In this document: positions 37,250 through 63,029 of the stretch, piece after piece | How the letters are laid out: each line of letters begins with the position of its first letter | Numbering within the stretch: position 1 is the first letter of the stretch | Origin: Candidatus Azobacteroides sp. | Lineage (GTDB): Bacteria; Bacteroidota; Bacteroidia; Bacteroidales; WRGA01 | Reading direction: 5' to 3' | Assembly (NCBI GenBank): GCA_009787405.1 | Contig: WRGA01000121.1 | Location: 2,709-66,708 of the forward strand | DNA: 64,000 bases | Made by a program: the position numbers and the translations under genes | The notes under the pieces: model-generated | Told to the model about the DNA's origin: nothing | What the model saw: only the letters and a program-made list of their open reading frames with translations | Databases searched by the model: none

Positions 37250-37290
37250 CTTTTAACTCTTAACTTTTAATTCTTAACTCTTAACTTCTC
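37250..37290 (-). repeat. Heptamer-periodic RARTTAA tract filling the whole GNAT/DUF3298-like spacer
   Basis: The coding strand reads TGA-GAAGTTAA-GAGTTAA-GAATTAA-AAGTTAA-GAGTTAA-AAG-ATG. All 39 nt between the stop and the next start are repeat units. Confidence 0.85.
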
Positions 37291-38359
37291 ATTCCATCAT
37301 CAAGCTCATCACGGCATTTTCGGACGGAAAAATATGGTATTCGGACGGAAGTTCATCAACTCGATATCCCAACAAAAGACGGGTCAATAACCCGACGGAC
37401 AGTTCAAAGTCAGGAACTCCGGCATTTGCTTCAGTACATTTTCCGGAATGCACCCGATACGTTTTATTGTTCCAAGCAAGCTGTTTATCGATGACCTTAA
37501 CGGAGAACTGCAATCGGGGCTGTTTCATCGCATACTGTTCCAGCATTTTTTCCGCATCCACAATACGGGCCATTCCGAGAGGTTGAGCGCCTTCTCCCCC
37601 GCTTTCGGCAACCAAAACAGCGCCAGAAACCCTGTAAGTGTTTGCCACAGACGACAAGAGGCATAACCCGGAAAGTTCATTTTCCGTCAATAAATTTTTA
37701 ATGACGAGACGATTTTCCTCCCTGCGGGTAAAACAAACCCCGGTCAATTGATTTCCATGTCGTGCCATAAATATCTTGCCGTCCGAAAAAAAACAATCCT
37801 CAAAAACAGCTCCCCAGTCTTCGGTTGTTTTCTGAATGGTCAAATCCTTTTTTCCAAAAATCCGGTTACAAAAGTTCGCCACCGCCGGAACATCCTTCAT
37901 CTCCGCTTCTTTTACGACACAACCACCCTCACGCATATTCTCCGGCAATTCGATGATTTGTTCTTTCGTATCGAACATTGCGGTATATCCGAATTTTTCA
38001 TAAAACCCGACCACCCCGTTTCCCTGCGGGATAAGAATTGTCAACGGAATCTGATGCTTTTTCATTTCGGTAAACGCTGCATGCAGCAATTCCTCCATGT
38101 ATCTTTTATTCCGTTCTTCGGGCAACGTGCACGCGCCGGAAATATACGCCGTTTGAATGCGTTTTTTCCCGAATGTCATGTCATACGGAAGCATTTGCAA
38201 CGAGGCAACCGCTTTTTCGTCGACCACCTTCACCAAGGTATTTTCATTACGGTATTTTGTCCGAAAATAAATATCCATAAACTCATCCGAATCCTCAAAG
38301 CAGATTTTCCACATCCGCATGATTTCCGGGAACAATCGATCATCAGCATAAACAACCAT
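37289..38359 (-). CDS. GNAT-family acetyltransferase, Eis-like architecture (GNAT plus a C-terminal SCP2-like domain)
   Basis: 356 aa with the GNAT core ISGACTLPEERNKRYMEELLHAAFTEM...GFYEKFGY. The long C-terminal extension matches the Eis/SCP2 class in length. Confidence 0.6.
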   Translation of the reverse strand: MVVYADDRLFPEIMRMWKICFEDSDEFMDIYFRTKYRNENTLVKVVDEKAVASLQMLPYDMTFGKKRIQTAYISGACTLPEERNKRYMEELLHAAFTEMKKHQIPLTILIPQGNGVVGFYEKFGYTAMFDTKEQIIELPENMREGGCVVKEAEMKDVPAVANFCNRIFGKKDLTIQKTTEDWGAVFEDCFFSDGKIFMARHGNQLTGVCFTRREENRLVIKNLLTENELSGLCLLSSVANTYRVSGAVLVAESGGEGAQPLGMARIVDAEKMLEQYAMKQPRLQFSVKVIDKQLAWNNKTYRVHSGKCTEANAGVPDFELSVGLLTRLLLGYRVDELPSEYHIFPSENAVMSLMME

Positions 38360-38405: not shown

Positions 38406-38466
38406 GCTAAAGCGCAAAGATACGAAATTTAAATTCTTTGTGACTTTATGTCTTCGCGTTTAAATC
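38406..38466. repeat. Shorter copy of the CAAAG/CTTTG element abutting a heptamer tract; it also carries the -7 box of the GNAT gene
   Basis: The reverse complement reads GATTTAAACGCGAAGACATAAAGTCACAAAGAATTTAAATTTCGTATCTTTGCGCTTTAGC. Confidence 0.6.
38415..38422 (-). promoter_or_regulatory. -7 box TATCTTTG upstream of the GNAT gene
   Basis: TAnnTTTG match 56 nt upstream of the ATG at 38359. Confidence 0.5.
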
Positions 38467-38498
38467 AACTCTTAACTCTTAACTTTTAACTCTTAACC
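38467..38498 (-). repeat. Heptamer-periodic RARTTAA tract overlapping the DUF2156 stop codon
   Basis: The coding strand reads CAG-GTT-AAG-AGT-TAA-AAGTTAA-GAGTTAA-GAGTT. The last codons (VKS) and the TAA stop are themselves repeat units. Confidence 0.85.
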
Positions 38499-39376
38499 TG
38501 AACCAGCCCCTTCTCCAATAAAATTGCAGGATGATAAGACATTTTCGCTTTACGCAACGACTCCAAGTCCAAGTCCTCTTCCCGATTCATATATTTATAG
38601 TTACAGGCGACATGTTCGGCTATTTGTTGATTGATGATGGCATAAACGCCGTTCAACGCTTTTTCGACGTGTACACCGAAAGTATCTTGTCCGATCGCCT
38701 GACCGAAAGAAAAAGCAGTAAGTTTCCCGTCTATTTTAATGACACCTCCTCTCAATTGCAAATCCTCATAGTTGTTCAACGCCGTTCTTACGGCATGCGC
38801 TTCGCTGTGGAGCATGTCACTGTCGGTACAGTCGTTTTCGATGCACCATTGTTTCTGCATTTCCAGACAAGCCGGAATCAATTCTTTTGTAATGGGAACA
38901 AATTCAAAATCGGGATAATCGATTTTGAACCGGTTGATATGATTTCTTTTGCTCTGATATTTTTTCCCGGCCAAATGAATTAAATCTTCGGTCAGATAAA
39001 CATAATCCGAACCTCCACGCATGGGTATAAACTCAAACGTATCCGGCACAGCCTTTTCGAGCAAAGCAAACATGTCGTCCGTAATCGACATCAACCGGAA
39101 CGGAAATCCGTTTTCTTCGGCATCCGCCATCAATATTTCCAGTACTCCGGTCAAATCACCCGTTCCGAGCGGCATGATATAACAAGGCTTTTGATCGTCG
39201 ACAACCACAAAACGAATCACCAAAAAACCGTTTACGATGCCATACGTTGTATGGTAACGCTCTTTCCAGCAGAAAATATTGGAAAAAGAAAAATCACAAT
39301 TCCGATAATCAGACTTTAACAAATAAGAATCAAGCAACGGCTTGTCTTTCAGCTCTACGGTTTTAAATTGTAACAT
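38486..39376 (-). CDS. DUF2156 protein (stand-alone homologue of the MprF aminoacyl-phosphatidylglycerol synthase C-domain)
   Basis: 296 aa. The N-terminus DYRNCDFSFSNIFCWKERYHT and the length are characteristic of free-standing DUF2156/LPG_synthase_C proteins. Confidence 0.6.
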   Translation of the reverse strand: MLQFKTVELKDKPLLDSYLLKSDYRNCDFSFSNIFCWKERYHTTYGIVNGFLVIRFVVVDDQKPCYIMPLGTGDLTGVLEILMADAEENGFPFRLMSITDDMFALLEKAVPDTFEFIPMRGGSDYVYLTEDLIHLAGKKYQSKRNHINRFKIDYPDFEFVPITKELIPACLEMQKQWCIENDCTDSDMLHSEAHAVRTALNNYEDLQLRGGVIKIDGKLTAFSFGQAIGQDTFGVHVEKALNGVYAIINQQIAEHVACNYKYMNREEDLDLESLRKAKMSYHPAILLEKGLVQVKS

Positions 39377-39383
39377 TATATTA

Positions 39384-39428
39384 TTTTAACTTTTAATTCT
39401 TAACTCTTCATTCTTCATTCTTAATTCA
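39384..39428 (-). repeat. Heptamer-periodic tract overlapping the esterase stop codon
   Basis: The coding strand reads ATG-AAT-TAA-GAATGAA-GAATGAA-GAGTTAA-GAATTAA-AAGTTAA-AAT. Confidence 0.8.
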
Positions 39429-40701
39429 TCAAATACATCAACCCGACCGGAAACGTTTTCCTCGTATTCGCCCAATTATGCCACCCATCAAATTCAACAA
39501 ATTCAAATTCATATCCTTTTCTATTCAAAACTTTTACAAATGTCCGATTAGAGCCTAAAACCATATTTTCCTGCAATCCCCAATCGAGAAACAACTTCAG
39601 ATTTCTTTTCACTGCGGTATCGAATTGACGAATCAGCCAATCGTTTCTGACTTCATTCCCGTTCGTATCTTTCAAAATCAAATCACGCCAAAAAGAACCC
39701 GATTGAGACAAAACTTTCCCGAACATACCGGGATGATGAAAGGCGATAAAAGCCGCATTCAGTCCGCCGTAACTCATTCCTCCGATGATATTGTCGGCCG
39801 GATTCGAAGACATCGTATATCTTTCTCTCACAACAGGGACAAATTCCGAAACAAACGCATTCATAAAATCAAAATTCAACGCGTATTCAGTATATCTTGA
39901 TTCCGAAGTCGGATTGTCGAACATCACCGCAATCACCGGACGAATCATCCCATCCGCAATCAAATTATCCAAAACAACCGGCACTTCCACCCGATTCATA
40001 TAAACAAATGCATCAAATAACCACACCGCCGGATATGTTTCCGTCCCGTCATACCCGGGCGGCAAGTAAACATACACATTACGAATATTGTTCAATAACC
40101 GGCTGTTAATATTGAATAAATCAATACGGCTATCCACACCGGCATGCGTTTGTTCGTTCCGGTCGGGATGATTCCGGCTCAAATCCAACACCGAATAACT
40201 GAAATCTTTCCTCTCCCCCTTCGGAATACGGTTATCGTTATACCGGTCCAAATCTTTGACCGTTTTTCCCGTTTTTTTGTCGGTCACGTCAAACCGATAC
40301 GACATACACACATCATCCGGCAACAAATAACACCGATAATATACCCCGGTATTTTTCAGCCGGTACATTTTCAGGTCTCCGAAACGATTCTCGTCGTAAA
40401 TTCCGGGAATAAACAACTTTACGTCGACAGCTGTCTCGGAAGAGTTGTAAATAAACGTAACATACACATAATCATCGTATAACGAATCCTTTTCGACTAA
40501 CGGAAGCCCGTTTTTCGAAGCATTCGTCCAAAAAACATCCAATTCATTGTTCAAAGAAACATCATCCATATTTTCCCATTCGGCAATCGTAGGACTGACC
40601 GTCATGTAGGGCGCCTTTATCTCCGAAAAACAAACGGTGTTTTGAGAAAATATTTGCCGGACAATAAATAAAAAGACAAAAAGACAAAAAGATAGTCTCA
40701 T
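39421..40701 (-). CDS. Secreted alpha/beta-hydrolase of the enterochelin-esterase-like family
   Basis: The track ORF begins at 40821. The ATG at 40701 (MRLSFCLFVFLFIVRQIFSQ) gives a signal peptide and leaves the TATCTTTG -7 box at 40779-40786 upstream. It has an N-terminal Ig-like domain, then the nucleophile elbow GGMSYGGLNA and SQSGSFW. Confidence 0.7.
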   Translation of the reverse strand: MRLSFCLFVFLFIVRQIFSQNTVCFSEIKAPYMTVSPTIAEWENMDDVSLNNELDVFWTNASKNGLPLVEKDSLYDDYVYVTFIYNSSETAVDVKLFIPGIYDENRFGDLKMYRLKNTGVYYRCYLLPDDVCMSYRFDVTDKKTGKTVKDLDRYNDNRIPKGERKDFSYSVLDLSRNHPDRNEQTHAGVDSRIDLFNINSRLLNNIRNVYVYLPPGYDGTETYPAVWLFDAFVYMNRVEVPVVLDNLIADGMIRPVIAVMFDNPTSESRYTEYALNFDFMNAFVSEFVPVVRERYTMSSNPADNIIGGMSYGGLNAAFIAFHHPGMFGKVLSQSGSFWRDLILKDTNGNEVRNDWLIRQFDTAVKRNLKLFLDWGLQENMVLGSNRTFVKVLNRKGYEFEFVEFDGWHNWANTRKTFPVGLMYLMN

Positions 40702-43328: not shown

Positions 43329-43350
43329 AAACAACGGTAATATTTCCTAC

Positions 43351-43391
43351 AAAAATCCCCGAACAAGTTATCAAAATGTTCGGGGATTTTT
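43351..43391. terminator. Bidirectional rho-independent terminator (OmpH gene / ABC-2 operon)
   Basis: AAAA-ATCCCCGAACA-(11 nt)-TGTTCGGGGAT-TTTT lies between convergent genes. Confidence 0.8.
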
Positions 43392-43424
43392 GTGGAAAAA
43401 CATATAATCATCCAATGGATTTAT

Positions 43425-46822: not shown

Positions 46823-46882
46823 AAATCCAAAATTGAAAGGTTACAAACTAAATCACTGAAAACAAGACAAATATTCATCATA

Positions 46883-46922
46883 TTTTAATCCTAACTCTTA
46901 ATTCTTAACTCTTAATTCTTAA
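46883..46922 (-). repeat. Heptamer-periodic tract overlapping the TolC stop codon
   Basis: The coding strand reads ACC-ATT-AAG-AAT-TAA-GAGTTAA-GAATTAA-GAGTTAG-GATTAAAA. Confidence 0.85.
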
Positions 46923-48405
46923 TGGTCAACAGCCCTGTCACTTTTTTTAAGTAAAGGTTGTCGATCCTCAAACCGATCAGAGCATCCTCTTTTTCCGAAT
47001 AAGCGGCATACCAAGCGGCTTGAGCGTCCAAAACGTCTGTCACCGCAACAAGACCTTCATCAAAAGACAATTGGGCATACCGTAAGTTCTCATCCGCCTG
47101 ATCCAAATTATTTTCCGCGGCGATAAGCCGTTTTTTCGTTTCTTCAATTTTGTACGCCGCCTGCCTGAACTGAAGTTCGATTTTTTCCTTGGCATCGTCC
47201 AATTTCACTTCATTGATGTGCCGTTCGCTTTTGGCCGCACGTATTTTCTGTTTTTGCTCTCCCCAGTGAAGAATCGGAATTTTCATGACCACACCGACAT
47301 TCCACGAACCGGAAAATTTTTTTTCAAATCCGTTGAAAAGATCCGGATTGGAATACAAATAGTTTGCCGTCAATCCGATTTCCGGAAGATAATCGGCAAA
47401 CGCGATTTTTTCTTTTGACTCGGACAAGTCGATCAATTTTCGCAGGCTTTTCAGTTCCGAGCGATTTTCCATTGCCCGGTCCAATCCGATATTTTCATCG
47501 GATACAAACCCGGAATCCTTTTGCGATATTTCATCCGACAACAGCACATCAGTATTCACAGGCAATCCGATGTATTGACACAACTGCATTTTCGCCAGAC
47601 TCAATCCGTTTTGCGCTTTGGTGAGATTCATATCAACCTCGTTCAGTTTTACCCGAACCTTTAAAATATCAGCCCGCGTAGCCATGCCTTCATTAGAAAG
47701 TTCCGTCACGTTTTTCGCCAATTGTTCGAGCAGCGTTTTGTAATCAGCGGCGGTTTTCACCTTGTTGCTGACCGAAATAACCATCCAATAAGCGCTTTCG
47801 GTTTGATATAATACCTCCGATTGCTCCAATGACTCCTGTTGCTTGGCAATATCGATGCCGATTTTCGCCATTTTGTTGGTTTCCCGGATTTTTCCCCCGG
47901 TATAAATCGGCTGCATCAACGACAACGCCCCAATAAATGTATTTCGGACATCAATGGACAATTCGTCGCGAGGAATGGTCGTATAATCTTTCCATTGAAT
48001 CTTCTCGGGATTAGTTTTCGGATTAAACGGGTTTCCGTCGGCATCCAATGGTACCGGATTTCCGTCAACCATGGTCCACCCGTTATATATCTGATCCTGC
48101 CGAAACCCGAAGCTCCCGTCGGTCATTTTCGTACCGACAGGCAAAAACTTATCATCCGGCAACAAATAAATCTTATTGCTCATCCGAAGATAAGAAAGCT
48201 CCGCATTTACTTTCGGCAAATAAGCCGTTTTTGCCTGAGCTTTTTTATACTCGGCCATTTTCACCTCTTCACGTTTAATCTGCAAATCATTACTTTGATT
48301 CAACGCCAAATCAAGACATTCTTGAAGCGACAAAATTCTCGTCTGTGAAAAAACAGACATCATACAAAAAAACAGGCAAAAAATAAGACAAAATCTTTTC
48401 ATCAT
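46912..48405 (-). CDS. TolC-family outer-membrane efflux protein
   Basis: 497 aa with a signal peptide and the duplicated OEP repeat architecture (LSLQECLDLALNQSNDLQ...). Confidence 0.85.
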   Translation of the reverse strand: MMKRFCLIFCLFFCMMSVFSQTRILSLQECLDLALNQSNDLQIKREEVKMAEYKKAQAKTAYLPKVNAELSYLRMSNKIYLLPDDKFLPVGTKMTDGSFGFRQDQIYNGWTMVDGNPVPLDADGNPFNPKTNPEKIQWKDYTTIPRDELSIDVRNTFIGALSLMQPIYTGGKIRETNKMAKIGIDIAKQQESLEQSEVLYQTESAYWMVISVSNKVKTAADYKTLLEQLAKNVTELSNEGMATRADILKVRVKLNEVDMNLTKAQNGLSLAKMQLCQYIGLPVNTDVLLSDEISQKDSGFVSDENIGLDRAMENRSELKSLRKLIDLSESKEKIAFADYLPEIGLTANYLYSNPDLFNGFEKKFSGSWNVGVVMKIPILHWGEQKQKIRAAKSERHINEVKLDDAKEKIELQFRQAAYKIEETKKRLIAAENNLDQADENLRYAQLSFDEGLVAVTDVLDAQAAWYAAYSEKEDALIGLRIDNLYLKKVTGLLTIKN

Positions 48406-48488: not shown

Positions 48489-48932
48489 TTACGTCAGATT
48501 TTCAAAAATTTTCTTCAACACATTTCTACAAATCATAATCTCATCCCCGGACATTTTCGACAACGTTCTTTCAACCACATCCTGCACAATTTGAGTCGCT
48601 TGTTTTTCCAAATCCATACCCTTTTGCGTCAGATAAATAAGATTCACTCTCCTATCGGTTGAATCAGGAACTCTGACCGCCAGATTCTGTTTTTCCAGAT
48701 TATCGATCAACCTCGTCATGCTCGGTTTATCCCTGAATGTAATATCCGACAACGTCTGTTGCGTCACTTTATCCTTTTGCCACAAACAAGCCAATACCGT
48801 CCACTGCTCTACCGTGATTCCCAAATTCGCTTCTTTAAAACGATTAAAAAGATACCGGTTAATCAGTTTCGATATTTTTCCGTTCAAAATTCCGAAAAGT
48901 TCGATCTGATTCAGCTTTTGCGACAAATCCAT
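48489..48932 (-). CDS. MarR-family transcriptional regulator
   Basis: 147 aa with the winged-helix block ITVEQWTVLACLWQKDKVTQQTLSDITFRDKPSMTRLIDNLEKQNLAVR...DRR. It is the first gene of the efflux operon. Confidence 0.88.
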   Translation of the reverse strand: MDLSQKLNQIELFGILNGKISKLINRYLFNRFKEANLGITVEQWTVLACLWQKDKVTQQTLSDITFRDKPSMTRLIDNLEKQNLAVRVPDSTDRRVNLIYLTQKGMDLEKQATQIVQDVVERTLSKMSGDEIMICRNVLKKIFENLT

Positions 48933-49003
48933 AGTTGAAATTTATTACGAATAAATACATGGCAGATTTTTTTTAGTATCTATTTATTTTGAATATCCAT
49001 TAT

Positions 49004-49085
49004 TTTGAACGCGAAAATACAAAAACACAAAGTCGCAAAGAATTTAAACTTCGTCTCTTTCCGTCTTTGTAACCCGACGTTAAAA
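49004..49085. repeat. Second copy of the CAAAG/CTTTG palindromic element (upstream of marR)
   Basis: TTTGAACGCGAAAATACAAAAACACAAAGTCGCAAAGAATTTAAACTTCGTCTCTTTCCGTCTTTGTAACCCGACGTTAAAA aligns with the 54887 copy by eye. Confidence 0.65.
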
Positions 49086-49244
49086 TAGATACCGTTTTTT
49101 GAGACATATTTATTCCCAATCAGGATTAATTGCATAAACAACGATGTAAAAATACAACCATTTATTAAAATAACAAGTACAATATCTATTTTTAACATAA
49201 ATAATCACTCATTAACTGATGTTCACGATGCACAAAGCACGGTA

Positions 49245-49659
49245 AACGAGTAGACGAGGTTGGCTTTATGGTATCCGAAACCTATTTATTAAAGTTTATT
49301 CCGATTTATCGGGCGTAGCACAGTTCAGCGTAAGGAAAACCTGCCCGTACCCGTACCTCAACCCCATAACGGGTTGAACTACTTCGGAGTTCTATAATGC
49401 CGGGTTGTGCCGCCTTACCCCGATTGCATTTCGCTTACTTGGGGTTATCCATGTTTGCCTCCTACAGAGGCTTTACCGATCTTAATAACCGGTCATTTCA
49501 TGCTCCGAAAGAGTAAAATCAAACAGCGCGGAAATCGTTCTGCGTCGAAAATGACGATAATAAACAGAAAGCCCTGAGGGGGCGTAATCATTATATTATC
49601 AATTGATTACGACCCCTCAGGGCTTCCAATACCCACTTGGTTTTACTTGTCTACTCGTT
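49245..49659. ncRNA. Candidate large structured non-coding element (~415 nt), family unassigned
   Basis: No ORF of 60 aa or more occurs in any frame from 49199 to 49691. An 11-bp perfect closing helix joins 49245-49255 and 49649-49659. A 22-position hairpin joins 49569-49590 and 49604-49625, and at least six further 5-7 bp helices are present, including a cUUCGg-capped hairpin at 49377-49391. Two wobble positions and the UUCG loop favour the + strand. A T-rich run after the big hairpin on the - strand favours a terminator reading. The strand is left open. Confidence 0.35.
49569..49625 (-). terminator. Possible intrinsic terminator of the ECF-sigma operon (alternative reading of the large hairpin)
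   Basis: 21 of 22 paired positions with a 13-nt loop. On the minus strand it is followed by CTTTCTGTTTATTAT. It lies about 65 nt downstream of the 49692 stop. Confidence 0.4.
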
Positions 49660-49691
49660 ATTTTTGATTCCTGATGCGGTTAATCCATGAA

Positions 49692-50144
49692 TCACTTTCT
49701 GTCGACTTGGCTTTTGATCAGCTCTTTGTTCATTTTCATTTCCGCCAGACTTATTTTGAACACTTTTTCCGGAGGCAGTATTTTTTTAAACTTAGCATAA
49801 TATTCTTTTACGATCTCAATTTCTTTTGAACGTACTTCAAGTTGACTATCAACCATTTTTGTATATTGTGCATCTGTAATATTTTTACCGGCCATGATGG
49901 TCTTTATTTCCCTCCTGACTTCCCTGTTTATTTCAAATCGTTTCTGCGTCATTTCATGGTAAAGGGGAAAAAACGCACGCGCTTCTTCCGGAGTAAGTTC
50001 CACTTCTTGTAAAATGATCTTTTCCTGCTCCGCCCGAAAAGCTTCTACATCAAATTTTTGTCCGTCTCTCCGAAGTTGATTCTGAGCTGATACGCCTAAC
50101 GAGAATATACTCATTAATGTCAGCAAAAATAGAATAGGTTTCAT
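49692..50144 (-). CDS. Secreted helical protein of unknown function (possibly Spy/CpxP-like), third gene of the ECF module
   Basis: 150 aa with a signal peptide (MKPILFLLTLMSIFSLGVSAQ) and a Lys/Glu-rich helical body. Confidence 0.5.
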   Translation of the reverse strand: MKPILFLLTLMSIFSLGVSAQNQLRRDGQKFDVEAFRAEQEKIILQEVELTPEEARAFFPLYHEMTQKRFEINREVRREIKTIMAGKNITDAQYTKMVDSQLEVRSKEIEIVKEYYAKFKKILPPEKVFKISLAEMKMNKELIKSQVDRK

Positions 50145-50176
50145 ACTGATTTATTTTTTCAATCTTTAGAATTACT

Positions 50177-50542
50177 TTAAAAATTACCGTTTGTTTCATG
50201 AAAATATTCATACAAATCGTAATCATTCACGGCTGAGATCAAGATGTCTTCATCCGACAAAGGGATTGTTTCCGATTGGTTTTGTGCCGTGGAAAAACCC
50301 TTTATTTCATGAGTTCCATATTGTACATATAAACGTATCCCCACCGCAATACCACATATCATAGCCGCCATGTACACCCACGGCAATATTTTTTTCCGCA
50401 ACCCGATTTTAATCGGCTTCGCCGGGTTTTCGGGTAATGAAGCCATTACACAAGCGGTCAGGTTTTCAAAATATCCTTCCGGAACGGTAAACGGATTTTT
50501 GTTCCCTACTTGCTCCAAAGAGGTGATCTTATCGGTTTTCAT
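50177..50542 (-). CDS. Single-pass membrane protein, putative anti-sigma factor
   Basis: 121 aa with one central TM (ILPWVYMAAMICGIAVGIRLYV). It lies between the ECF sigma gene and the secreted protein. The call rests on position only. Confidence 0.45.
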   Translation of the reverse strand: MKTDKITSLEQVGNKNPFTVPEGYFENLTACVMASLPENPAKPIKIGLRKKILPWVYMAAMICGIAVGIRLYVQYGTHEIKGFSTAQNQSETIPLSDEDILISAVNDYDLYEYFHETNGNF

Positions 50543-50671
50543 ATTGTTTTGTTGTTTTATTGTTTTATTTTAACATTTAAGCATCCGTGTACACTGCTTT
50601 TCGCGATACCGATTATTAGACTTGTTCAAAACAAAAAGGTTTAATTTCTTAAAAAGAATGAACATCTATTT

Positions 50672-51229
50672 TTACAACGTATTCGAAAAGTATTCCTCGA
50701 TCTTCTTTACGGCATGATGATATGATGCCTTCAACGCTCCGACCGAGGTTCCCAATATCCGGGACATTTCCTCATATTTCATGTCTTCAAAATAATGCAT
50801 GTTAAATACCAATCGCTGTTTCTCGGGTAAAGTGAGAATTGCTTTTTGCAATTTCAATTGGGCTTCGTCTCCTTCAAAATATTCCTCACTTTCCAAAATA
50901 TTGAGCAAAGGCATTTCATCATCAGAAAGAGAAACCTGATGGCGTGCCTTTTGACGATTCAGAAAGGTAATGCATTCATTTACCGCAATCCGGTAAAGCC
51001 ATGTGGATATTTTTGATTCCCCGCGGAAATTTTCAATGTTTATCCATGCTTTCATAAACGTATTTTGCAGCACGTCATCGGCATCATCATGGGATATCAC
51101 CATCCTTCTGATATGCCAATACAGACTTTCGGAATATTGAGATACAATGCTTCCAAATGCTTCCCGTCGTTTTCTCTCATCTTGCAGTTGAAGTATAATT
51201 TCTTTTTCGTGATATGCAGGCATAGTCAT
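50672..51229 (-). CDS. ECF-type RNA polymerase sigma-70 family factor
   Basis: 185 aa with region 2 (DADDVLQNTFMKAWINIENFRG...TWLYRIAVNE) and region 4 (LPEKQRLVFNMHYFEDMKYEEMSRILGTSVGALKASYHHAVKKI). Confidence 0.9.
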   Translation of the reverse strand: MTMPAYHEKEIILQLQDERKRREAFGSIVSQYSESLYWHIRRMVISHDDADDVLQNTFMKAWINIENFRGESKISTWLYRIAVNECITFLNRQKARHQVSLSDDEMPLLNILESEEYFEGDEAQLKLQKAILTLPEKQRLVFNMHYFEDMKYEEMSRILGTSVGALKASYHHAVKKIEEYFSNTL

Positions 51230-51250
51230 AAATCCGGATGATTAATCTCG

Positions 51251-51258
51251 CAAAGGTA
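51251..51258 (-). promoter_or_regulatory. -7 box TACCTTTG upstream of the ECF sigma gene
   Basis: TAnnTTTG match 22 nt upstream of the ATG at 51229. Confidence 0.5.
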
Positions 51259-51342
51259 ACATTTTATTAAAATAAAAGGGTACACGATTTACGGCTCTCT
51301 TCACCTCTTTGTCCGTCATTTTATTTTTCGACGGAAAAATTC

Positions 51343-51350
51343 TACCTTTG
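51343..51350 (+). promoter_or_regulatory. -7 box TACCTTTG upstream of acnA
   Basis: TAnnTTTG match 34 nt upstream of the ATG at 51384. Confidence 0.55.
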
Positions 51351-51383
51351 TTTAATGTTTTGAACTTAAAATAAAGACTATTT

Positions 51384-53639
51384 ATGATTTTTGACATTGA
51401 TCTGATCCAAAAGGTATATGATTCATATCCCGGCAAAATTGCCACAGCAAGACCAATCATCGGACACCCTTTGACGTTGACCGAAAAAATTTTGTATGCT
51501 CATTTATCCGAAGGAACCATCCTGAAACGATATGAAAGGGGTACGGATTACGTGAATTTCGCGCCGGATCGTGTGGCCATGCAAGATGCCACCGCACAAA
51601 TGGCTTTACTGCAATTTATCACTGCCGGGAAAAATCGTACCGCCGTACCGTCGACCGTTCATTGCGATCATCTGATCCCGGCTCACCACAATGCCGCCGA
51701 AGACCTGAAACAGGCAGAAATAACGAACGATGAAGTTTATACATTTTTACGTTCGGTTTCCCAAAAATACGGCATCGGCTTTTGGAAGCCCGGCGCCGGT
51801 ATTATTCATCAGGTTTTACTGGAAAATTATGCTTTTCCCGGAGGAATGATGATCGGTACCGATTCGCACACTCCCAATGCGGGCGGATCGGGCATGATTG
51901 CCATCGGCGTGGGTGGTGCGGATGCCATGGATGTGATGGCGGGTATGTCTTGGGAATTGAAAATGCCGAAGCTGATCGGTGTAAAACTGACGGGAAAAAT
52001 GAACGGATGGACTTCCCCGAAGGATGTCATTCTCAAACTTGCCGGCATCCTGACCGTAAAAGGCGGAACAAATTCGATCATCGAGTATTTCGGCGAAGGA
52101 ACAAAATCGATTTCCGCAACCGGAAAAGCCACGATTTGCAACATGGGGGCGGAAGTCGGCGCCACCACGTCGGTTTTCCCTTACGACGAAAAGATGAATG
52201 AATATCTCCGGGTTACGGGACGCGAAAAGGTGGCGAAACTTGTCGCCGGAATCGCCGCATGTTTGCAACCTGATCCCGAAATTCTTGCCGATCCCGAAAA
52301 GTACTATGACCGCATCATAGAAATCGACCTCGACCAATTGGAGCCTTACATCAACGGGCCGTTTACTCCGGATGCCGCTTATCCGGTATCCGAATTCGGC
52401 AAAATAGTGAAAGAAAAAGATTACCCGCAAAAGATGGAAGTGGGACTGATCGGTTCCTGCACCAACTCGTCATACGAAGATTTGAGCCGGGCGGCTGCCA
52501 TCGCTCGCCAAGCCCGAAAAGACAACCTGAAAGTAAAAGCGGAATTAATCATCAATCCGGGATCTGAACAAATCCGCCATACCACCGAAAGAGACGGCAT
52601 CATTTCCGATTTCGAGTCGATCGGCGGTGTGATCATGGCGAATGCCTGCGGCCCTTGTATCGGACAATGGCAACGGGATGATCAAATCGGACGTCCTAAT
52701 TCGATCGTCACTTCTTTCAACCGGAATTTTGCCAAAAGAAATGACGGCAATCCGCAAACCCATGCATTTGTGGCATCCCCCGAAATGGTGACGGCGTTGA
52801 CCATTGCCGGTGATTTGTGTTTCAATCCATTGACGGACACTTTAATCAACGAAAACGGACAAAACATCAAGCTGAAAGAACCCGAAGGATTCGAAAGTCC
52901 TCCGAAAGGCTATTCCGTAGATGATCCGGGATACATCGCTCCTCCGGCTGACGGCGGAAACATTACGGTTAAAATCAATCCCGATTCTCAACGCCTGCAA
53001 TTGTTGCAACCGTTTCCCGCTTGGGACGGAAAAGATATCGAACAGCTTCCGTTGCTGATCAAAGCGAAAGGAAAATGTACGACGGATCATATTTCGCCTG
53101 CCGGCCCGTGGTTGAAATTCCGCGGACATCTGGAAAACATTTCGGACAATCTGCTGACCGGCGCCGTCAATGCATTCGACGGCAAAGCCGGTTCGGCATT
53201 GAATCCCCGAAACGGCGAATCTGAAAGTGTATCCGTTTTGGCGAAAGAATACAAAAAAGCAGGCATCGGCTCCATCGTGGTGGGCGAAGAGAACTACGGA
53301 GAAGGTTCTTCCCGCGAACATGCCGCCATGGAACCCCGTTTTTTGAATGTCAAAGCTATTTTGGTGAAATCTTTTGCCCGCATTCACGAAACGAATCTGA
53401 AAAAGCAAGGGATGCTTGCTCTTACTTTTTCCGACAAAAACGATTACGACAAAATACAGGCAGACGATAAAATCAGCATTCACGGATTGACCGCGTTTAC
53501 ACCGGGAAAACCGTTACACGCGACATTGCATCATGCTGACGGAACAACCGATGCTTTTGATGTTTTGCATACGTACAACGAAACTCAAATCGAATGGTTC
53601 AAGGCCGGAAGCGCTCTCAATAAAATGAAATCCGAATAA
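51384..53639 (+). CDS. acnA: Aconitate hydratase, short (~750 aa) mitochondrial-like type
   Basis: 751 aa with [20 protein letters not shown] and Fe-S ligand contexts SCTNSSYED and [10 protein letters not shown]. Confidence 0.92.
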
Positions 53640-53656
53640 CCGGAATAATTGAATAT

Positions 53657-54838
53657 ATGCAAAAAATAATATTGAAAGACAATCAATTGCAGGTTTCCGA
53701 TTTTCCCGTGATTCCTTTTATCGAAGGAGACGGCATTGGAAAAGACATTTGGCCGGCAGCCCGGTCGGTAATGGATCAAGCTGTGGAAAAAGCCTATCAC
53801 GGACAACGTCGAATCGAATGGAAAGAAGTTTTGGCCGGAGAAAAGGCTTTTCTCCAAACGGGTTCCCGGTTACCGGAAGAAACGATGAATGCCTTCAAAG
53901 AATATTTGGTCGGAATCAAAGGCCCGTTGACCACACCGGTCGGTGGCGGCATTCGATCGTTGAATGTCGCATTGAGGCAGGACTTGGATTTATACGTCTG
54001 TTTACGTCCGGTTCGATGGTTCAGAGGGGTCGAATCTCCCATCAAGCATCCGGAAAAAGTCAATATGGTTATTTTCCGGGAAAACACGGAAGATATTTAC
54101 GCCGGCATCGAATGGATGCAGGGAACGGAAGAAGCACAAAAGTTCTACCACTTGTTGGAATCTGAAATGAACGTAAAAAAAGTCCGATTCCCCAAAACTT
54201 CATCATTCGGCGTAAAACCCGTTTCGGTGGAAGGTTCCGAAAGATTGGTGCGGGCAGCAATTAAATATGCGTTAAAAAATAATTTGCCGTCGGTGACATT
54301 GGTTCATAAAGGAAATATCATGAAATTTACCGAAGGCGGTTTCAAAACATGGGGGTATGCATTGGCTGAAAGAGAGTTTGCCGATGAAATCAAATCGGGG
54401 AAACTTGTAATCAAAGATGTGATCGCCGATGCTTTTTTACAAAACACGCTGTTAAAACCCGAAGATTATGCGGTAATTGCCACATTAAATCTGAACGGCG
54501 ATTATATCTCCGATCAGTTGGCAGCCATGGTGGGCGGCATCGGCATTGCGCCGGGTGCGAACATCAATTATCAAACGGGACATGCCATTTTTGAAGCAAC
54601 TCACGGAACAGCCCCCGACATTGCGGGAAAACAAATTGCCAATCCGTCTTCCTTGTTGTTGTCGGGCGTTATGATGCTGGAATATCTGGGTTGGAACGAA
54701 GCCGCCGGACTCATTGAAAAAGCAATGGAAACTACGTTTCTGAGCGGAAAAGCCACCGGCGATCTGGCCCGTTTCATGAAAGACGGTCATACCCTTTCCA
54801 CGAAAGAATTTGCGGCAGAACTGAATGCGAACCTTTGA
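53657..54838 (+). CDS. icd: NADP-dependent isocitrate dehydrogenase (homodimeric Icd type)
   Basis: 393 aa with [30 protein letters not shown] and [26 protein letters not shown]. It starts 17 nt after acnA. Confidence 0.9.
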
Positions 54839-54875
54839 GAGTTAAAAAGTTAAGAGTTAAGAATTTAGAGCATTA
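54838..54875 (+). repeat. Heptamer-periodic tract starting at the icd stop codon
   Basis: TGA-GAGTTAA-AAAGTTAA-GAGTTAA-GAATTTA-GAGCATTAA. Confidence 0.8.
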
Positions 54876-54886
54876 ACAATTTATAT

Positions 54887-54969
54887 TTTAAACGCCAAGT
54901 CACAAAGACGGAAAGGCGCAAAGTTTAAATCCTTTGCGCCTTTGTGTCTTTGCATCTTTGCGTTTGAAA
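54887..54969. repeat. ~83-bp imperfect palindrome of CAAAG/CTTTG units centred on TTTAAA (most complete copy)
   Basis: TTTAAACGCCAAGTCACAAAGACGGAAAGGCGCAAAG-TTTAAA-TCCTTTGCGCCTTTGTGTCTTTGCATCTTTGCGTTTGAAA. The arms are near reverse complements. Confidence 0.8.
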
Positions 54970-55014
54970 TGATTTAATTAAATTCTGCCATGTACCTAAA
55001 AGCCGGAGTTGAAA

Positions 55015-55048
55015 GCAAAAAAGTCCGCATGAATTTGCGGACTTTTTT
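55015..55048. terminator. Bidirectional rho-independent terminator (icd / C10 copy A)
   Basis: An A-run, GTCCGCA, a 6-nt loop, TGCGGAC and a T-run lie between convergent genes. Confidence 0.85.
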
Positions 55049-55065
55049 GCCGGATAAAGGTTCTA

Positions 55066-57288
55066 TCAGTTTTTGATGATCTTTTCTGTTATCACATTGT
55101 TTCCGGTTTGAACGGTAACCAAGTAATACCCGGGTGTTAAGTCATTTACGGGAATATCCACTTGTTTCATTTTACAGAGAACGGATTTCACCGTTCTGCC
55201 CGATAAATCGGTTATCTTAACCGATTGAATGATTGATTCTTCACCGGAAACGGATAATACGTCTTTCACGGGATTCGGATAAAGTGTAAAGGAAGAAACG
55301 GATACATTATTCAATGACGAAAAAATTTCAGGCTCTATTGTAATATCAATATTGTTTAAATAAGACCTATAATTAGAAACCAATTTTCTCTCTCCTGTTG
55401 CTGCTTTTGCATACAAAGCTAATTTGTATGTACCGGCAACTGTCAATGCGGAAGTAGAGAAAGTTGCTTCTGCCACATAATTTTGCTCAATGGAAATGTT
55501 TGTTTTATCAATTAATTGTGCTAACTCTCCGGTGGAAGGAGAATATAATCCTAAGTCCAGTTCACCGATAAATGCCGAGCCCTGATTCCATAATCCTGCT
55601 ATAACACTGAATGGTTCACCTTTTTTTGTAGTTGAAGATGTTACAGTTAATCCGGGATCTTCAGGTCGATAGTAATTATACATCACTAATTTACTGTTAT
55701 CGGCAACAATCCCGTTTTCTACTTCCAAAGGAAGGATATCTGTTGATAAGGCATCTCCCTCAATAACGATCCAATCGCCATCTGTCGGTTTAACCGCTGC
55801 ACGAATTTTATAATTTCCCGGTGAAACATCGGACGAAACAGCACAAGTAACAGTAAATGCGGCTGAGAAAGAATATCCTGCCGGTAATTCCTGTGCATTA
55901 TAACTGCCTATCGGCTCAATGATCTCGTCATTATCATCCACCAAAACAATCCCGTAAAGACCGGAAAAATCTGTAACCCCGGCGTTGGCATAAGTTGCCT
56001 CAACGGTAAAACTTTCTCCTCTATCAACAGATGTCGCAGGAGAACTCAAACTTGTTTTGCTTTTTAACTTCATTTCATAACTCTTTATACCGTTTTGATT
56101 CGGCATAATATTGAGAATGATCCCTTGATTGGTGTTATACACACCGGAACCTGAACCGGCGCCATCGATTCCGGGATTCAACATATTCGACGCAAAATAG
56201 CCGTCATGTAAACCTCCCCATCCCCAATTAAAATGAAAAAGTCCTGTATTGTCGTATCCGTCACAAACAAAGGCATGACCGGCTTCATTAACATCCGAAC
56301 CGGAGTAAAATACCGGCCTTCCCGCGTCAATCTCATTTTTTAACATCCCATTCCACTCCTCATCGTCATAATACACCCGTTGTTTGCCCTGCACGCTTTG
56401 ATCATAACCGAAGTAAGTCATCCAAGCTTTGCCCGCAGCTATACTGCTTGCCGCGCTCCCGCCGTTGGTTGCCAAATTATAATCCATTCCCACACTTACT
56501 CCACAATGATACATCAATGTCGCCACAGCTGCATTTTGTTCGGCTGTGGATGTTCCGTCATACGTATTGGTCATATTGTTCCAATCATAATTGACATTAA
56601 AATCAACAGACGGAATATCTATACTCATCGAATTCGTTGTATAGGGGTCACTGCTTCCCGTTCCCGATGTCGGATAATTATAATACTTCATGATTTGCGC
56701 CATGGCTGTGGCCACACAACCGGTCACGGTTTTTGTTCCGCCGATGGACGGACACAAATCATTATACGGTCCGTATTGATTCCACCGGGTTTGGATCAAT
56801 GGAAGCACCGCCTGAACAGATCTCAAAGATGCTGCATTCCCGGTCAGATAAGCATTCCACGTTGCTTTTGTTTCTTCACTTTGAGGCAGATTATTTTCGA
56901 CGGCATACGCAATTTCCCGTTGCAAATAATCAATCCAATACGCCATATTCGGGGGAAGATTATCCGGGTCGTATCCCCCTTTACCGTATCCCAACACTGG
57001 CGCAGTCGCATCATCGCCCGAAACCATGACAAATCCGTCATTTTCTCCGACATTAAACACATAGTAATAAACCGCCTCCGGGGAGGCTTTTGAATTTCTT
57101 AATCCCGTTTGACTTGCGGCGGTATATACCAATTTTAAATCAACGGATTTACCGCTTCTCAATTGATCTTGAGAACGAACAAGTCCCAAAGCGACTTTTT
57201 CCGCCTTTTCGACATCTACTTTTCCCGCATGCAAAGGAGCAAATAAGAACATCAATGCCGAACCCATTAAGAATACCGATTTTTTCAT
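55066..57288 (-). CDS. Peptidase C10 (streptopain/PrtT-like cysteine protease) with propeptide, Ig-like domains and a T9SS sorting domain, copy A
   Basis: 740 aa with a signal peptide and a Spi-type propeptide. The catalytic Cys context is TGCVATAMAQIMKYY, the His context is GHAFVCDGYD, and NWGWGG is present. The C-terminus FTLYPNPVKDVL...GYYLVTVQTGNNVITEKIIKN is a T9SS CTD. Confidence 0.85.
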   Translation of the reverse strand: MKKSVFLMGSALMFLFAPLHAGKVDVEKAEKVALGLVRSQDQLRSGKSVDLKLVYTAASQTGLRNSKASPEAVYYYVFNVGENDGFVMVSGDDATAPVLGYGKGGYDPDNLPPNMAYWIDYLQREIAYAVENNLPQSEETKATWNAYLTGNAASLRSVQAVLPLIQTRWNQYGPYNDLCPSIGGTKTVTGCVATAMAQIMKYYNYPTSGTGSSDPYTTNSMSIDIPSVDFNVNYDWNNMTNTYDGTSTAEQNAAVATLMYHCGVSVGMDYNLATNGGSAASSIAAGKAWMTYFGYDQSVQGKQRVYYDDEEWNGMLKNEIDAGRPVFYSGSDVNEAGHAFVCDGYDNTGLFHFNWGWGGLHDGYFASNMLNPGIDGAGSGSGVYNTNQGIILNIMPNQNGIKSYEMKLKSKTSLSSPATSVDRGESFTVEATYANAGVTDFSGLYGIVLVDDNDEIIEPIGSYNAQELPAGYSFSAAFTVTCAVSSDVSPGNYKIRAAVKPTDGDWIVIEGDALSTDILPLEVENGIVADNSKLVMYNYYRPEDPGLTVTSSTTKKGEPFSVIAGLWNQGSAFIGELDLGLYSPSTGELAQLIDKTNISIEQNYVAEATFSTSALTVAGTYKLALYAKAATGERKLVSNYRSYLNNIDITIEPEIFSSLNNVSVSSFTLYPNPVKDVLSVSGEESIIQSVKITDLSGRTVKSVLCKMKQVDIPVNDLTPGYYLVTVQTGNNVITEKIIKN

Positions 57289-57315
57289 AAATTTGTAAAT
57301 ATTAATTAAATAAAA

Positions 57316-59544
57316 TCATTCATCTATTTTCACCATTTTTTCCGTTATTGTGCCGGTTTCGGTTTGAACAATCAATAAATAAATTCCCGGATTTATCCCG
57401 CTTACGGGAATATCAGTTTGCTTCGCATCATTGCAAGCAACGAACTTTATCATTTTTCCCGATAAATCGGTTATCTTCACCGATTGAATGGTTGAACTTT
57501 CACCGAAAATATGCAATATATCTTTCACCGGATTCGGATAAAAAGTAAAGGAAGAATTAGTAACCGAAGCAATAGCCGACTGATTCTTCAATATTGTCAA
57601 ATCCATTTCATTTTTATAATCAGTGTATGAAGCAACCATTTCTTTATTGCCGACAACACTTTTTTGATATAACGTCAATTTATACGTTCCGGCAGAGGAA
57701 GTTATTTCAGGTGAAGCTAATGTAAAGGTATAATATTGGTTGTCATTAGGAATCGAAACAGCCGGTTGAGACCCGATCACTTCAATCAGCGTACCGTTTT
57801 GATACAACCCTAATTCCAGTTCTCCGACAAAAGCGCCGGTTCCACTGTTATTGATCCCGAATTCAACCGACAAAGGGCCTCCCTCATACGGGGAAGCGGG
57901 CGTTATAATAAAAGCCGGATCATCCCCGTTATACAATATCAAATCGCTGTTATCGGCAACAATTTCATTATTCACGGTTAATGGAAGAATATCCGTTGAT
58001 GCAGGATCACTTTCAATAACCATCCAGTCACCATCTGTCGGTTTTACCGCTGCACGAATTTTATAATTTCCCGCCGAAACATCGGACGAAACAGCACAAG
58101 TAACAGTAAAAGCAGATGAGAAAGAATACCCCGCCGGTAAATCTTGTTCATTATAAGTGCCTATCGGCTCAATGATCTCGTCATTATCATTTACCAAAAC
58201 AATCCCGTAAAGACCGGAAAAATCCGTAACCCCGGCGTTGGTATAAATTGCCGAAACGGTAAAATCCTCCCCTCTATTAACAGACGACGTAGAAGAACTC
58301 AAATTTGTCCCGCTTTTTAACTTCATTTCATAACTCTTTATACCGTTTTGATTCGGCATAATATTGAGAATGATCCCCTGGCTGTTGTTATACACACCGG
58401 AACCTGAACCGGCGCCGCCGGTTCCGGGATTCAACATATTCGACGCAAAATAGCCATTATGTGAACCTCCCCATCCCCAATTAAAATAAAAAAGTCCTGA
58501 ATCGTCGTATCCGTCACAAATAAAGGCATGACCACCTCCTGCATCATCTATGCCGTAATAAAATATCGGCCTGCGAGCATCGATTTCATTTCTTAACATG
58601 GCATCCCATTCATCCGGAGCATAATACATCCGTTTTTTCCCCTGAATACTCTGATCGTAACCGAAATAAGTTGTCCAGGCACTTGCCGCATCCAAACTGC
58701 CGGCCCCGCTTCCGCCGTTGGCTGCCAAATCAAAATCGGTATTCACACTGACGGCGCAATGATACATCAATGTCGCCACAGCTGCAATTTGTTCGGGTGT
58801 AGATGTTCCGTCATAAATATTGATCATATTATCCCAATCATAATTGACATTAAAATCGACAGACGGAATATCTATACTCGTCGAAGCCGTCGACGTATAA
58901 GGTTCACTGCTTCCCGTTCCCGATGCCGGATAATTATAATACTTCATGATTTGCGCCATGGCCGTAGCTACACATCCCGTAACGGGTTTCGAACCGTTTA
59001 TCAACGGACATGAATTATTGTACGGTCCGTATTGATTCCACCGGGTTTGAGTCAACGGAAGCACCGCCTGAACAGATTTCAAAGATTCTGTATTCCCGGT
59101 CAGATAAGCATTCCACGTTGCTTTTATTTCTCTACTTCGGGGCAGACTATTTTCGACGGCATACGCAATTTCCCGTTGCAAACAATCAATCCAATACGCC
59201 ATATCCGGAGGAAGACTATCCGGGTCGTATCCCCCTTTACCATATCCCAACACCGGCGCAGTCGCATCGTCGCCCGAAATCATGACAAATCCGTCATTTT
59301 CTCCGACATTAAACACATAATAATAAACTGCATCCGAGTAGGCTTTTGAATTTCTTAATCCCGTTTGACTTGCAGCGGTATACACCAACTTTAAATCAAC
59401 GGATTTACCGCTTCTCAATTGATCTTGGGAACGAACAAGTCCTAAAGCGACTTTTTCCGCCTTTTCGACATCCACTTTTCCCGCATATAAAAAAGGAAAA
59501 GAACAAATAAATATAAGTCCTGTCAACAGTCTGCCTTTAATCAT
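57316..59544 (-). CDS. Peptidase C10 cysteine protease with a T9SS sorting domain, copy B (tandem paralogue)
   Basis: 742 aa with the same motifs (TGCVATAMAQIMKYY, GHAFICDGYD, NWGWGG, FTFYPNPVKDIL...). Residues 22-68 are identical to copy A. Confidence 0.85.
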   Translation of the reverse strand: MIKGRLLTGLIFICSFPFLYAGKVDVEKAEKVALGLVRSQDQLRSGKSVDLKLVYTAASQTGLRNSKAYSDAVYYYVFNVGENDGFVMISGDDATAPVLGYGKGGYDPDSLPPDMAYWIDCLQREIAYAVENSLPRSREIKATWNAYLTGNTESLKSVQAVLPLTQTRWNQYGPYNNSCPLINGSKPVTGCVATAMAQIMKYYNYPASGTGSSEPYTSTASTSIDIPSVDFNVNYDWDNMINIYDGTSTPEQIAAVATLMYHCAVSVNTDFDLAANGGSGAGSLDAASAWTTYFGYDQSIQGKKRMYYAPDEWDAMLRNEIDARRPIFYYGIDDAGGGHAFICDGYDDSGLFYFNWGWGGSHNGYFASNMLNPGTGGAGSGSGVYNNSQGIILNIMPNQNGIKSYEMKLKSGTNLSSSTSSVNRGEDFTVSAIYTNAGVTDFSGLYGIVLVNDNDEIIEPIGTYNEQDLPAGYSFSSAFTVTCAVSSDVSAGNYKIRAAVKPTDGDWMVIESDPASTDILPLTVNNEIVADNSDLILYNGDDPAFIITPASPYEGGPLSVEFGINNSGTGAFVGELELGLYQNGTLIEVIGSQPAVSIPNDNQYYTFTLASPEITSSAGTYKLTLYQKSVVGNKEMVASYTDYKNEMDLTILKNQSAIASVTNSSFTFYPNPVKDILHIFGESSTIQSVKITDLSGKMIKFVACNDAKQTDIPVSGINPGIYLLIVQTETGTITEKMVKIDE

Positions 59545-60062: not shown

Positions 60063-61046
60063 ATGATGAATAAAGATAGTTTTTTCATGAAAACAATTAA
60101 CGGCAAATGGTCGTTAACATTGATTACTCTCGTCACCATACTTTGTTGGAGTCTTGTCATTGCTTTCAAATCAGACGATTTTTCCATCCAACCCAACCAC
60201 AGTTTATTTTTCGGCCCGCTTACAAAGCTCGTTTCCCCCCGAATTTTATTGTTTGTCAATTATCTGTTGGTGTTGGGAACAAGTTTCTTGTTATTATGGC
60301 TTGATCAGGTTTTCTCGATTATCCGAACCAAAACATTTCTTCCGTTTTTATTTTATACCCTTTTTATTACCACTGATCCCGGTTCATTCTTTTCATTGCC
60401 GGGAAATCTGACGACTCTTATTCTGTTGGCGGTTATTTATCAACTCTTCCGGTCATATCAAAAGGAAAAAAACGTGGAAGAAGCATTCAACATCGGCCTT
60501 TTGATCTCCGCGGGAAGTCTCTTCTCGACCCGGATTCTTTTTTTCATTCCTGTTATTTGGATCGGATTATCGTATACACGGGCTTTTTCCCGGAAATCGT
60601 TTTTTGCCTCCATCGTCGGATTATTGACTCCTTATTGGCTGACTTTTTGTTGGTTTTTATATCAAAAAGATATATCCGGATTTATCGAACCGTTTTATCA
60701 TTTTTTTCAGGTCAATCCTTCTTCCGCTCTCGAATACGAAATTTCCGGTTGGATCAGGGTCTGTTTTTCTCTTCTGATCACCATTTTTGCGGTGATTAAT
60801 TTCAGGATGCACAGTTTTAAAGACAAAATCAAAACCCGCACTTATTTTTATTTTATTCTGACACTTATTATTTTTGTCGCTATTTTAATCATTTTTAATA
60901 TTATACCCGTCACAGAATACGCCGGAATCTATTATTTGTCCGTCAGTTTATTTGCCGCACATTTCTTCGTGACAGTCAATTCCCGTTTATCCGCTGTTTT
61001 TTTCTATCTGTCGCTTATCACATTCATCGGTCTGCTGTTTTTTTAA
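60063..61046 (+). CDS. Polytopic integral membrane protein, function unknown
   Basis: 327 aa with about 9 hydrophobic segments and no recognisable motif. Confidence 0.55.
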   Translation: MMNKDSFFMKTINGKWSLTLITLVTILCWSLVIAFKSDDFSIQPNHSLFFGPLTKLVSPRILLFVNYLLVLGTSFLLLWLDQVFSIIRTKTFLPFLFYTLFITTDPGSFFSLPGNLTTLILLAVIYQLFRSYQKEKNVEEAFNIGLLISAGSLFSTRILFFIPVIWIGLSYTRAFSRKSFFASIVGLLTPYWLTFCWFLYQKDISGFIEPFYHFFQVNPSSALEYEISGWIRVCFSLLITIFAVINFRMHSFKDKIKTRTYFYFILTLIIFVAILIIFNIIPVTEYAGIYYLSVSLFAAHFFVTVNSRLSAVFFYLSLITFIGLLFF

Positions 61047-61048
61047 AC

Positions 61049-61086
61049 ATAATCTTAATTTTTAATTCTTAATCTCTTAATTTAAA
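61049..61086 (+). repeat. Heptamer-periodic tract in inverted orientation after the membrane-protein stop and upstream of rpsA
   Basis: ATCTTAA-TTTTTAA-TTCTTAA-TCTCTTAA-TTTAAAA. The units are the reverse complement of those at the other loci. Confidence 0.7.
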
Positions 61087-61095
61087 AAATTAGTA

Positions 61096-61103
61096 TATCT
61101 TTG
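61096..61103 (+). promoter_or_regulatory. -7 box TATCTTTG upstream of rpsA
   Basis: TAnnTTTG match 64 nt upstream of the ATG at 61167. Confidence 0.55.
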
Positions 61104-61166
61104 TGCCAATTTTGAGAAAACTAACATAATGTCCAACCCAATTAATTTTTAATATCAATATTTTTA

Positions 61167-62993: not shown

Positions 62994-63029
62994 AAAAAAA
63001 CCGGTTCCCGAAAGGAACCGGTTTTTTTT
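62994..63029. terminator. Bidirectional rho-independent terminator (rpsA / rhuM-like)
   Basis: AAAAAAA-CCGGTTCC-CGAAA-GGAACCGG-TTTTTTTT. Confidence 0.9.

Follow-up and report, generated by a model that had tools for sequence, protein, structure and literature searches.

Our analysis of the 415 nt at positions 49245–49659 of the window, by which we mean the whole 64 kb stretch of DNA studied here, indicated that this segment is probably not a single element. It is better described as the terminator of an ECF-sigma operon joined to orphan junction DNA that has no demonstrable function, with a closing helix and several small helices that arose by chance. The apparent large structured RNA is thus reduced to one terminator hairpin and chance helices and does not merit listing as a new class of RNA; nothing in our results is in support of a new family of structured RNA. 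A small puzzle remains in the persistence of a 320-nt, 47 % G+C non-coding stretch at the junction, within an AT-rich spacer.

The segment is located in the longest intergenic region of the window (48933–49691, 759 nt), between the start of a minus-strand marR gene at 48932 and the stop of the ECF-sigma operon at 49692 (Table 1). As the initial annotation had claimed, this gap has no ORF of at least 60 aa in 49199–49691. Its description of a G+C-rich core was also borne out, as the richest 300 nt of the gap reach 47.3 % G+C, compared to 32–41 % in all other intergenic regions of at least 300 nt. Typical spacers have 22–37 % G+C and the whole window has 42.1 %. The window otherwise has the content of an ordinary Bacteroidales chromosome, including a xylan utilisation locus, SusC/D genes and T9SS-sorted proteases.

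Table 1. Coordinates of the features discussed in the text. Positions are those of the window unless a relative's locus (L003–L006) is named; a dot marks features without an assigned strand.
Feature	Position	Strand	Remarks
Short intergenic repeat copy	48999–49085	.	Between marR promoter block and marR start codon
Conserved marR promoter/operator block	49127–49176	-	84 % identity to the region 35–83 nt upstream of marR in L008 and L010
Left arm of 11-bp perfect inverted repeat, AACGAGTAGAC	49245–49255	.	One side of the closing helix of the initial annotation
Orphan GC-rich non-coding core	49245–49568	.	~47 % G+C over 300 nt; without coding signal, significant excess structure or homolog
Intrinsic-terminator-like hairpin	49555–49625	-	49569–49590 pairs with 49604–49625, 21/22, 13-nt loop; U-rich tail
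Right arm of 11-bp perfect inverted repeat, GTCTACTCGTT	49649–49659	.	Between stop of 150-aa gene and terminator hairpin
ECF-sigma operon	49692–51229	-	Genes for sigma factor, anti-sigma and 150-aa protein
150-aa secreted protein	49692–50144	-	Signal-peptide-like N-terminus; last gene of operon
Putative anti-sigma, 121 aa	50177–50542	-	Middle gene of operon
ECF sigma factor	50672–51229	-	Pfam Sigma70_r2/r4_2
7-nt-periodic runs	37234–37292, 38465–38497, 39374–39432, 46877–46923, 54845–54883		Adjoin minus-strand gene starts
Relatives' conserved block	L003:4500–4570, L004:4527–4602, L005:2010–2083, L006:4475–4547		Downstream of 150-aa ortholog

The one prominent structure of the segment is a hairpin that lies 67 nt downstream of the operon stop on the minus strand, and from its anatomy we infer an intrinsic terminator of the ECF-sigma operon. 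Read on the minus strand, the hairpin has an energy of –41.1 kcal/mol and its stem ends in UU and runs into UCUGUUUAUUAUCG (49568 down to 49555). This U-rich tail is present on the minus strand only, the + strand going on as CCAAUACCC. Comparable hairpins of 15–23 bp with A/T-run flanks were seen at other gene ends in the window (43343–43399, 55015–55050 and 62994–63028). The order of sigma factor, anti-sigma and 150-aa protein genes is the same in the relatives' loci L003–L006, and a hairpin with a T-run was found 38–190 nt past the orthologous stop in four of four relatives. The initial annotation had mentioned termination of the minus-strand ECF operon as a mundane alternative to an RNA gene, and the position of the hairpin, its minus-only U-tail, the other terminators of the window and the four relatives together favour that alternative.

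It is accepted that Bacteroides transcripts have Rho-independent terminators (PMC7366714). The hairpin resembles those of Bacteroidota in its GC-rich stem-loop, in the U-rich run on the transcribed strand and in its location shortly past the last stop of an operon, but differs from simple examples in its long stem (22 positions), its 13-nt A+U-rich loop and its broken U-run. A simple terminator scan with loops of 3–8 nt did not call it, owing to the 22-position stem and 13-nt loop. Its sequence is unrelated to that of the relatives' hairpin, CCCGGAATTTGTGAAAATTCCGGG. Nearby, at 49659–49666 (+), a perfect –7 box, TATTTTTG, adjoins the right arm of the repeat and faces into the 150-aa gene in the antisense direction; no correctly spaced –33 TTTG accompanies it, and it is probably a chance occurrence.

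The initial annotation had characterized the 415 nt as helix-dense, and this was upheld in so far as all of the complementary segments that it listed were found in place. The closing helix pairs at 11 of 11 positions and the hairpin at 21 of 22 around its 13-nt loop, and the small helices pair at 6/6, 6/7 (plus one G–U pair), 5/5, 7/7 and 5/6 (plus one G–U pair). What did not stand was the density itself, as complementarity beyond chance was found for the 22-bp hairpin only. Compared to shuffled sequences, the full 415 nt generated z values of –6.6 (+ strand) and –6.4 (minus strand), with an energy on the + strand of –145.5 kcal/mol against a shuffle mean of –103.4 kcal/mol. The hairpin by itself contributes –39 to –41 kcal/mol, which matches the whole excess over the shuffles, and so it accounts for the excess of the 415 nt. 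The interior without hairpin and closing helix (49256–49565, 310 nt) gave z values of only –1.64 (+) and –1.56 (minus). In sliding segments of 120 nt, for which the window-wide baseline was –0.37±1.2, the signal was strong only where the hairpin was included (z of –5.5 to –7.8); hairpin-free segments ranged from +0.6 to –1.9, with the exception of 49270–49389 on the minus strand (–3.4).

The ends of the proposed element were examined in the same manner. Perfect 11-bp inverted repeats 100–500 nt apart occur 15 times in the window, mostly within genes, and 4–18 times (mean ~10) in each of 20 Markov simulations. Because such repeats appear at the chance rate, the closing helix that set the ends of the element is no evidence of a unit, and this helix and the internal helices of 5–7 bp are most likely chance complementarity. 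The suggestion of a + strand transcript, drawn from two helices with G–U pairs, was not supported: both G–U pairs are real, yet the minus strand folds slightly better, with energies of –150.9 kcal/mol for the element (+ strand, –145.5) and –90.1 kcal/mol for the interior (+ strand, –84.7).

The initial annotation had not matched this region to a known RNA. A gathering-threshold scan of the whole window against the 4227 families of Rfam 15, whose coverage includes RNase P, tmRNA, 6S, SRP, riboswitches, HEARO, GOLLD, ROOL and Bacteroidales motifs, returned no match. An E-value scan of 48900–49750 returned only sub-threshold miRNA and snoRNA models, which fell on the hairpin, and ARAGORN found no tRNA or tmRNA.

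GC-rich intergenic islands in AT-rich genomes are a recognized signal of structured RNAs, serving as a discovery heuristic and not as a family. The region studied here is like such islands in being a long intergenic region with an ORF-free, G+C-rich core that stands out, but is unlike them in that the core is without excess folding energy, conserved homologs or any match among the 4227 Rfam families. It is unlikely, in our judgement, that the core is a lineage-restricted non-coding RNA gene, whether an independent sRNA or one that arises from the ECF operon by read-through or from the 3′ UTR. In that case the large hairpin would act as terminator of the RNA on the + strand, where it lacks a U-tract, or mark the 5′ boundary of the RNA on the minus strand. 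Such a gene would fit the status of the core as an ORF-free G+C outlier among the intergenic regions of the window, and a + transcript might begin from the weak –7-like box TATTTTTA at 49187 (+); however, on neither strand is a 6/6 TAnnTTTG box or a –33-spaced TTTG positioned so that it could drive the core. The local minus-strand fold at 49270–49389 may also be taken in its favour, but this is 1 of ~22 hairpin-free segments and its z value fails multiple-testing correction, while the interior as a whole reaches only about –1.6. A different 70–75-nt block at the equivalent place in relatives, with a promoter-like sequence and a hairpin, makes a small-RNA locus in the family plausible; against this, there was no Rfam match and no homolog for covariation in the collections, which were searched by exact words. 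If an RNA of the core were true, it would be a lineage-restricted sRNA and not a widespread family. The larger claim of a discrete 415-nt structured RNA, probably transcribed from the + strand, is not supported: only one hairpin is above chance, the ends are at the chance level, the minus strand folds no worse than the + strand, and there was no Rfam match, consensus promoter or homolog.

A decayed coding sequence was also considered. Codon usage in every frame of the core gave a best log-odds of –0.16, compared to +0.30±0.085 (minimum +0.08) for 324-nt pieces of genes of the window, and a six-frame composite of the core had no match at E≤10 among 5.8 billion proteins. The core as a pseudogene was rejected on the basis of this absent codon-usage signal and the lack of a protein match in six frames. 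A tblastx match of 49500–49556 to two C10 peptidase paralogs (E=0.008 window-wide) was judged to be chance, because it involves an antisense frame of those genes and has neither collinear partners nor blastn support. As a separate observation, the window includes tandem paralogs on the minus strand (55066–57288 and 57316–59544) with 81–88 % DNA identity over aligned stretches. The upstream paralog has the Pfam domains Spi inhibitor, Peptidase_C10 and Por_Secre_tail, which make it a T9SS-sorted, streptopain-like C10 protease.

On the marR side, part of the gap could be explained by comparison with relatives. The –7 box of the conserved promoter/operator block reads TATTTTTA and begins at 49154 (minus strand), and the corresponding boxes of L008 and L010 are perfect matches to TAnnTTTG, which is the –7 promoter consensus of Bacteroidota (PMC7366714). 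A palindromic box, TTACAT..ATGCAA (of the TTGCAT..ATGCAA type), overlaps the –7 box and is presumably a MarR box. This block maps outside the core and so sets the marR-side limit of the DNA lacking explanation, which extends from ~49177 to 49568 and consists of 70 AT-rich nt and then the GC-rich core of ~320 nt. The distance from the block to the marR ATG is 35–83 nt in relatives and ~195–245 nt here. A copy of a short repeat at 48999–49085 stretches the marR leader and thereby accounts for part of the unusual length of the intergenic region; other copies, at ~54884–54973 and ~38409–38461, are present in the window (80 % identity over 90 nt and 85 % over 47 nt).

This dispersed intergenic repeat has the form ..CGCAAAGA..TTTAAAT..TTTGCG.., with copies that are 80–85 % identical, and the copy at ~54884–54973 is itself a hairpin (54885–54923 with 54932–54970). 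Runs of a 7-nt-periodic motif (TTAACTC/TTAATTC) were also seen next to minus-strand gene starts and may represent something that the leaders or promoter-proximal regions of these genes have in common. The palindromic box of marR recurs between marR and a TolC-like gene in relatives (L008:4449–4479 and L010:4465–4487), which suggests a second MarR operator inside the operon. A MarR variant that is 99 % identical (P0012) has no contig on record.

Gene order places the core at a junction that is specific to this lineage. The exact 150-aa protein was found on only three contigs, two of which (L001 and L002) show 100 % identity to the window throughout the region and share its orientation. In the next relatives, the 150-aa protein is 61–70 % identical, the sigma factor 77–85 % and aconitase 85 %. 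The loci used for comparison were those of the 150-aa gene orthologs (L003–L007) and of the marR orthologs (L008–L010); blastn and tblastx detected nothing core-like downstream of the former or upstream of the latter, and an Rfam scan of the relatives' loci gave no match. The relatives have a 326-aa gene and/or rpsA downstream of the 150-aa gene and in the same orientation as it; the orthologs of these genes lie in the window at 60066–60995 and 61167–62825, on the opposite strand and ~10 kb away. The marR gene is located elsewhere in the relatives' genomes. This changed gene order, together with the different location of marR, puts the core at a lineage-specific rearrangement junction. The arrangement of 49692–59544 relative to 60063–62975 is consistent with an inversion in this lineage that would span roughly 49.6–59.9 kb.

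Based upon these observations, we propose that the 22-bp hairpin and its minus-strand U-rich tail would end the sigma/anti-sigma/150-aa transcript ~70–140 nt past the stop, and that a rearrangement in the lineage would have set the 3′ end of the ECF operon beside the marR-efflux operon. Approximately 320 nt of lineage-specific non-coding DNA would then fill the junction, with the terminator on one side and the conserved marR promoter on the other. This core would most likely be functionally inert, representing what is left of a decayed gene, or else mobile or foreign DNA that has become unrecognizable. Two points stand against an inert core, namely its 47 % G+C, which would not be expected to persist under neutral decay in a genome with AT bias, and the modestly stable minus-strand fold at 49270–49389 (z=–3.4).

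Four relatives share a conserved block of 70–75 nt downstream of the 150-aa ortholog. It begins with a promoter-like TTTG-N19-TAGATTGG, followed by AAGGTGAAA..., the hairpin CCCGGAaTTTGTGAAAATTCCGGG and a T-run, and the base of its stem covaries (GAAGCCCGG/AAACCCGG/GGCCCGG). This block, which matched nothing in Rfam and is missing from the window, might represent either a regulated terminator or a very small sRNA gene. Alignment of the region downstream of the operon with this block was not convincing, and alignment of sequences upstream of the sigma genes gave no clear conserved promoter motif to seek beside the core. It is quite improbable that the core encodes a regulatory RNA that is confined to the species or genus and arose at the rearrangement junction of the envelope-stress ECF-sigma operon and the MarR-controlled efflux operon; such an RNA might be a replacement for the relatives' promoter-plus-hairpin unit downstream of the same operon.

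The inverted repeats that bound the segment had led the initial annotation to consider a MITE, which our results do not favour. We regard it as distinctly improbable that 49245–49659 is a single-copy MITE, or the relic of another non-autonomous mobile element, with the ends AACGAGTAGAC and GTCTACTCGTT. The segment is like MITEs in its size of ~400 bp, its non-coding nature and its perfect 11-bp inverted termini, which are 393 nt apart. Its G+C content differs from that of the surrounding spacer, its absence from the same site in relatives fits an insertion, and it is positioned at a rearrangement junction. It is unlike MITEs in that its termini are no longer than chance pairs, with 15 such repeats in the window compared to ~10 expected. 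The flanks (...CACGGTA and ATTTTTG...) show GGTA against ATTT and hence no target-site duplication, and there is one copy in 64 kb, with the repeat-spacer-repeat pattern absent from 185,579 species genomes and viral contigs and its two metagenome matches being unrelated arrays of 84/89-nt repeats in which the 11-mer occurs by coincidence. No partner transposase was found either, as transposase, integrase and invertase genes number 0 of 42 in the window, based upon Pfam for 35 genes and a reading of the translations of the other seven. Finally, the right arm lies beyond the terminator hairpin, and so a mobile unit would have to include the terminator of the operon.

A related explanation is that the segment is an inverton of the Bacteroidales type: a recombinase would act on the repeats, and expression of the marR-efflux operon would depend on which way round the segment lies. 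A repeat-flanked segment of a few hundred base pairs (~400 bp) upstream of an efflux operon does fit the general layout of invertons (PMC8748976), but we consider this reading very improbable. The invertons described there have an invertase gene directly upstream and a consensus TTTG/TAnnTTTG promoter (PMC8748976), whereas the neighbours here are the ECF operon and marR, and an invertase or recombinase was found in 0 of 42 genes of the window. There is also no consensus promoter inside the segment, the best internal –7 boxes being 5/6 without a –33 TTTG, and the operon downstream is served by a fixed, conserved marR promoter of its own, located outside of the segment. Two independent assemblies have the same orientation at 100 % identity, and the inverted repeat itself is at the chance level. 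We therefore retain terminator plus orphan junction DNA as the preferred reading of the segment.

Searches for the core elsewhere gave no true match. No second copy was found within the 64-kb window, there was no match in phage and plasmid collections, and words of 20–24 nt from the core had no match in collections of genomes, metagenomes and viruses. Viral contigs also had no match to a 19-nt word taken from the arm of the hairpin. These collection scans need exact 19–24-mers and would miss homologs below ~90 % identity, and sampling of the organism and of its near relatives is very sparse, so that the absence of homologs is weak evidence. Seven patterns in total were scanned against the genome, metagenome and viral collections, and only the inverted-repeat pattern matched. 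The left repeat followed at 375–405 nt by the right repeat was absent from the 185,579 species genomes and from viral contigs, and was matched by two metagenome contigs (L011 and L012). These were rejected as homologs, as they are inverted arrays of 84/89-nt repeats that contain GTAGACGAGT words and have nothing in common with the core. The arrays (L012:3645–4180 and L011:8199–8710) consist of three 89-nt direct repeats facing three inverted 84-nt repeats, with two 41-nt repeats flanking, and the two loci are reverse complements of each other. Much like the iterons of replication origins, their repeat units contain GTAGACGAGT/GTTGACAAGT words in abundance.
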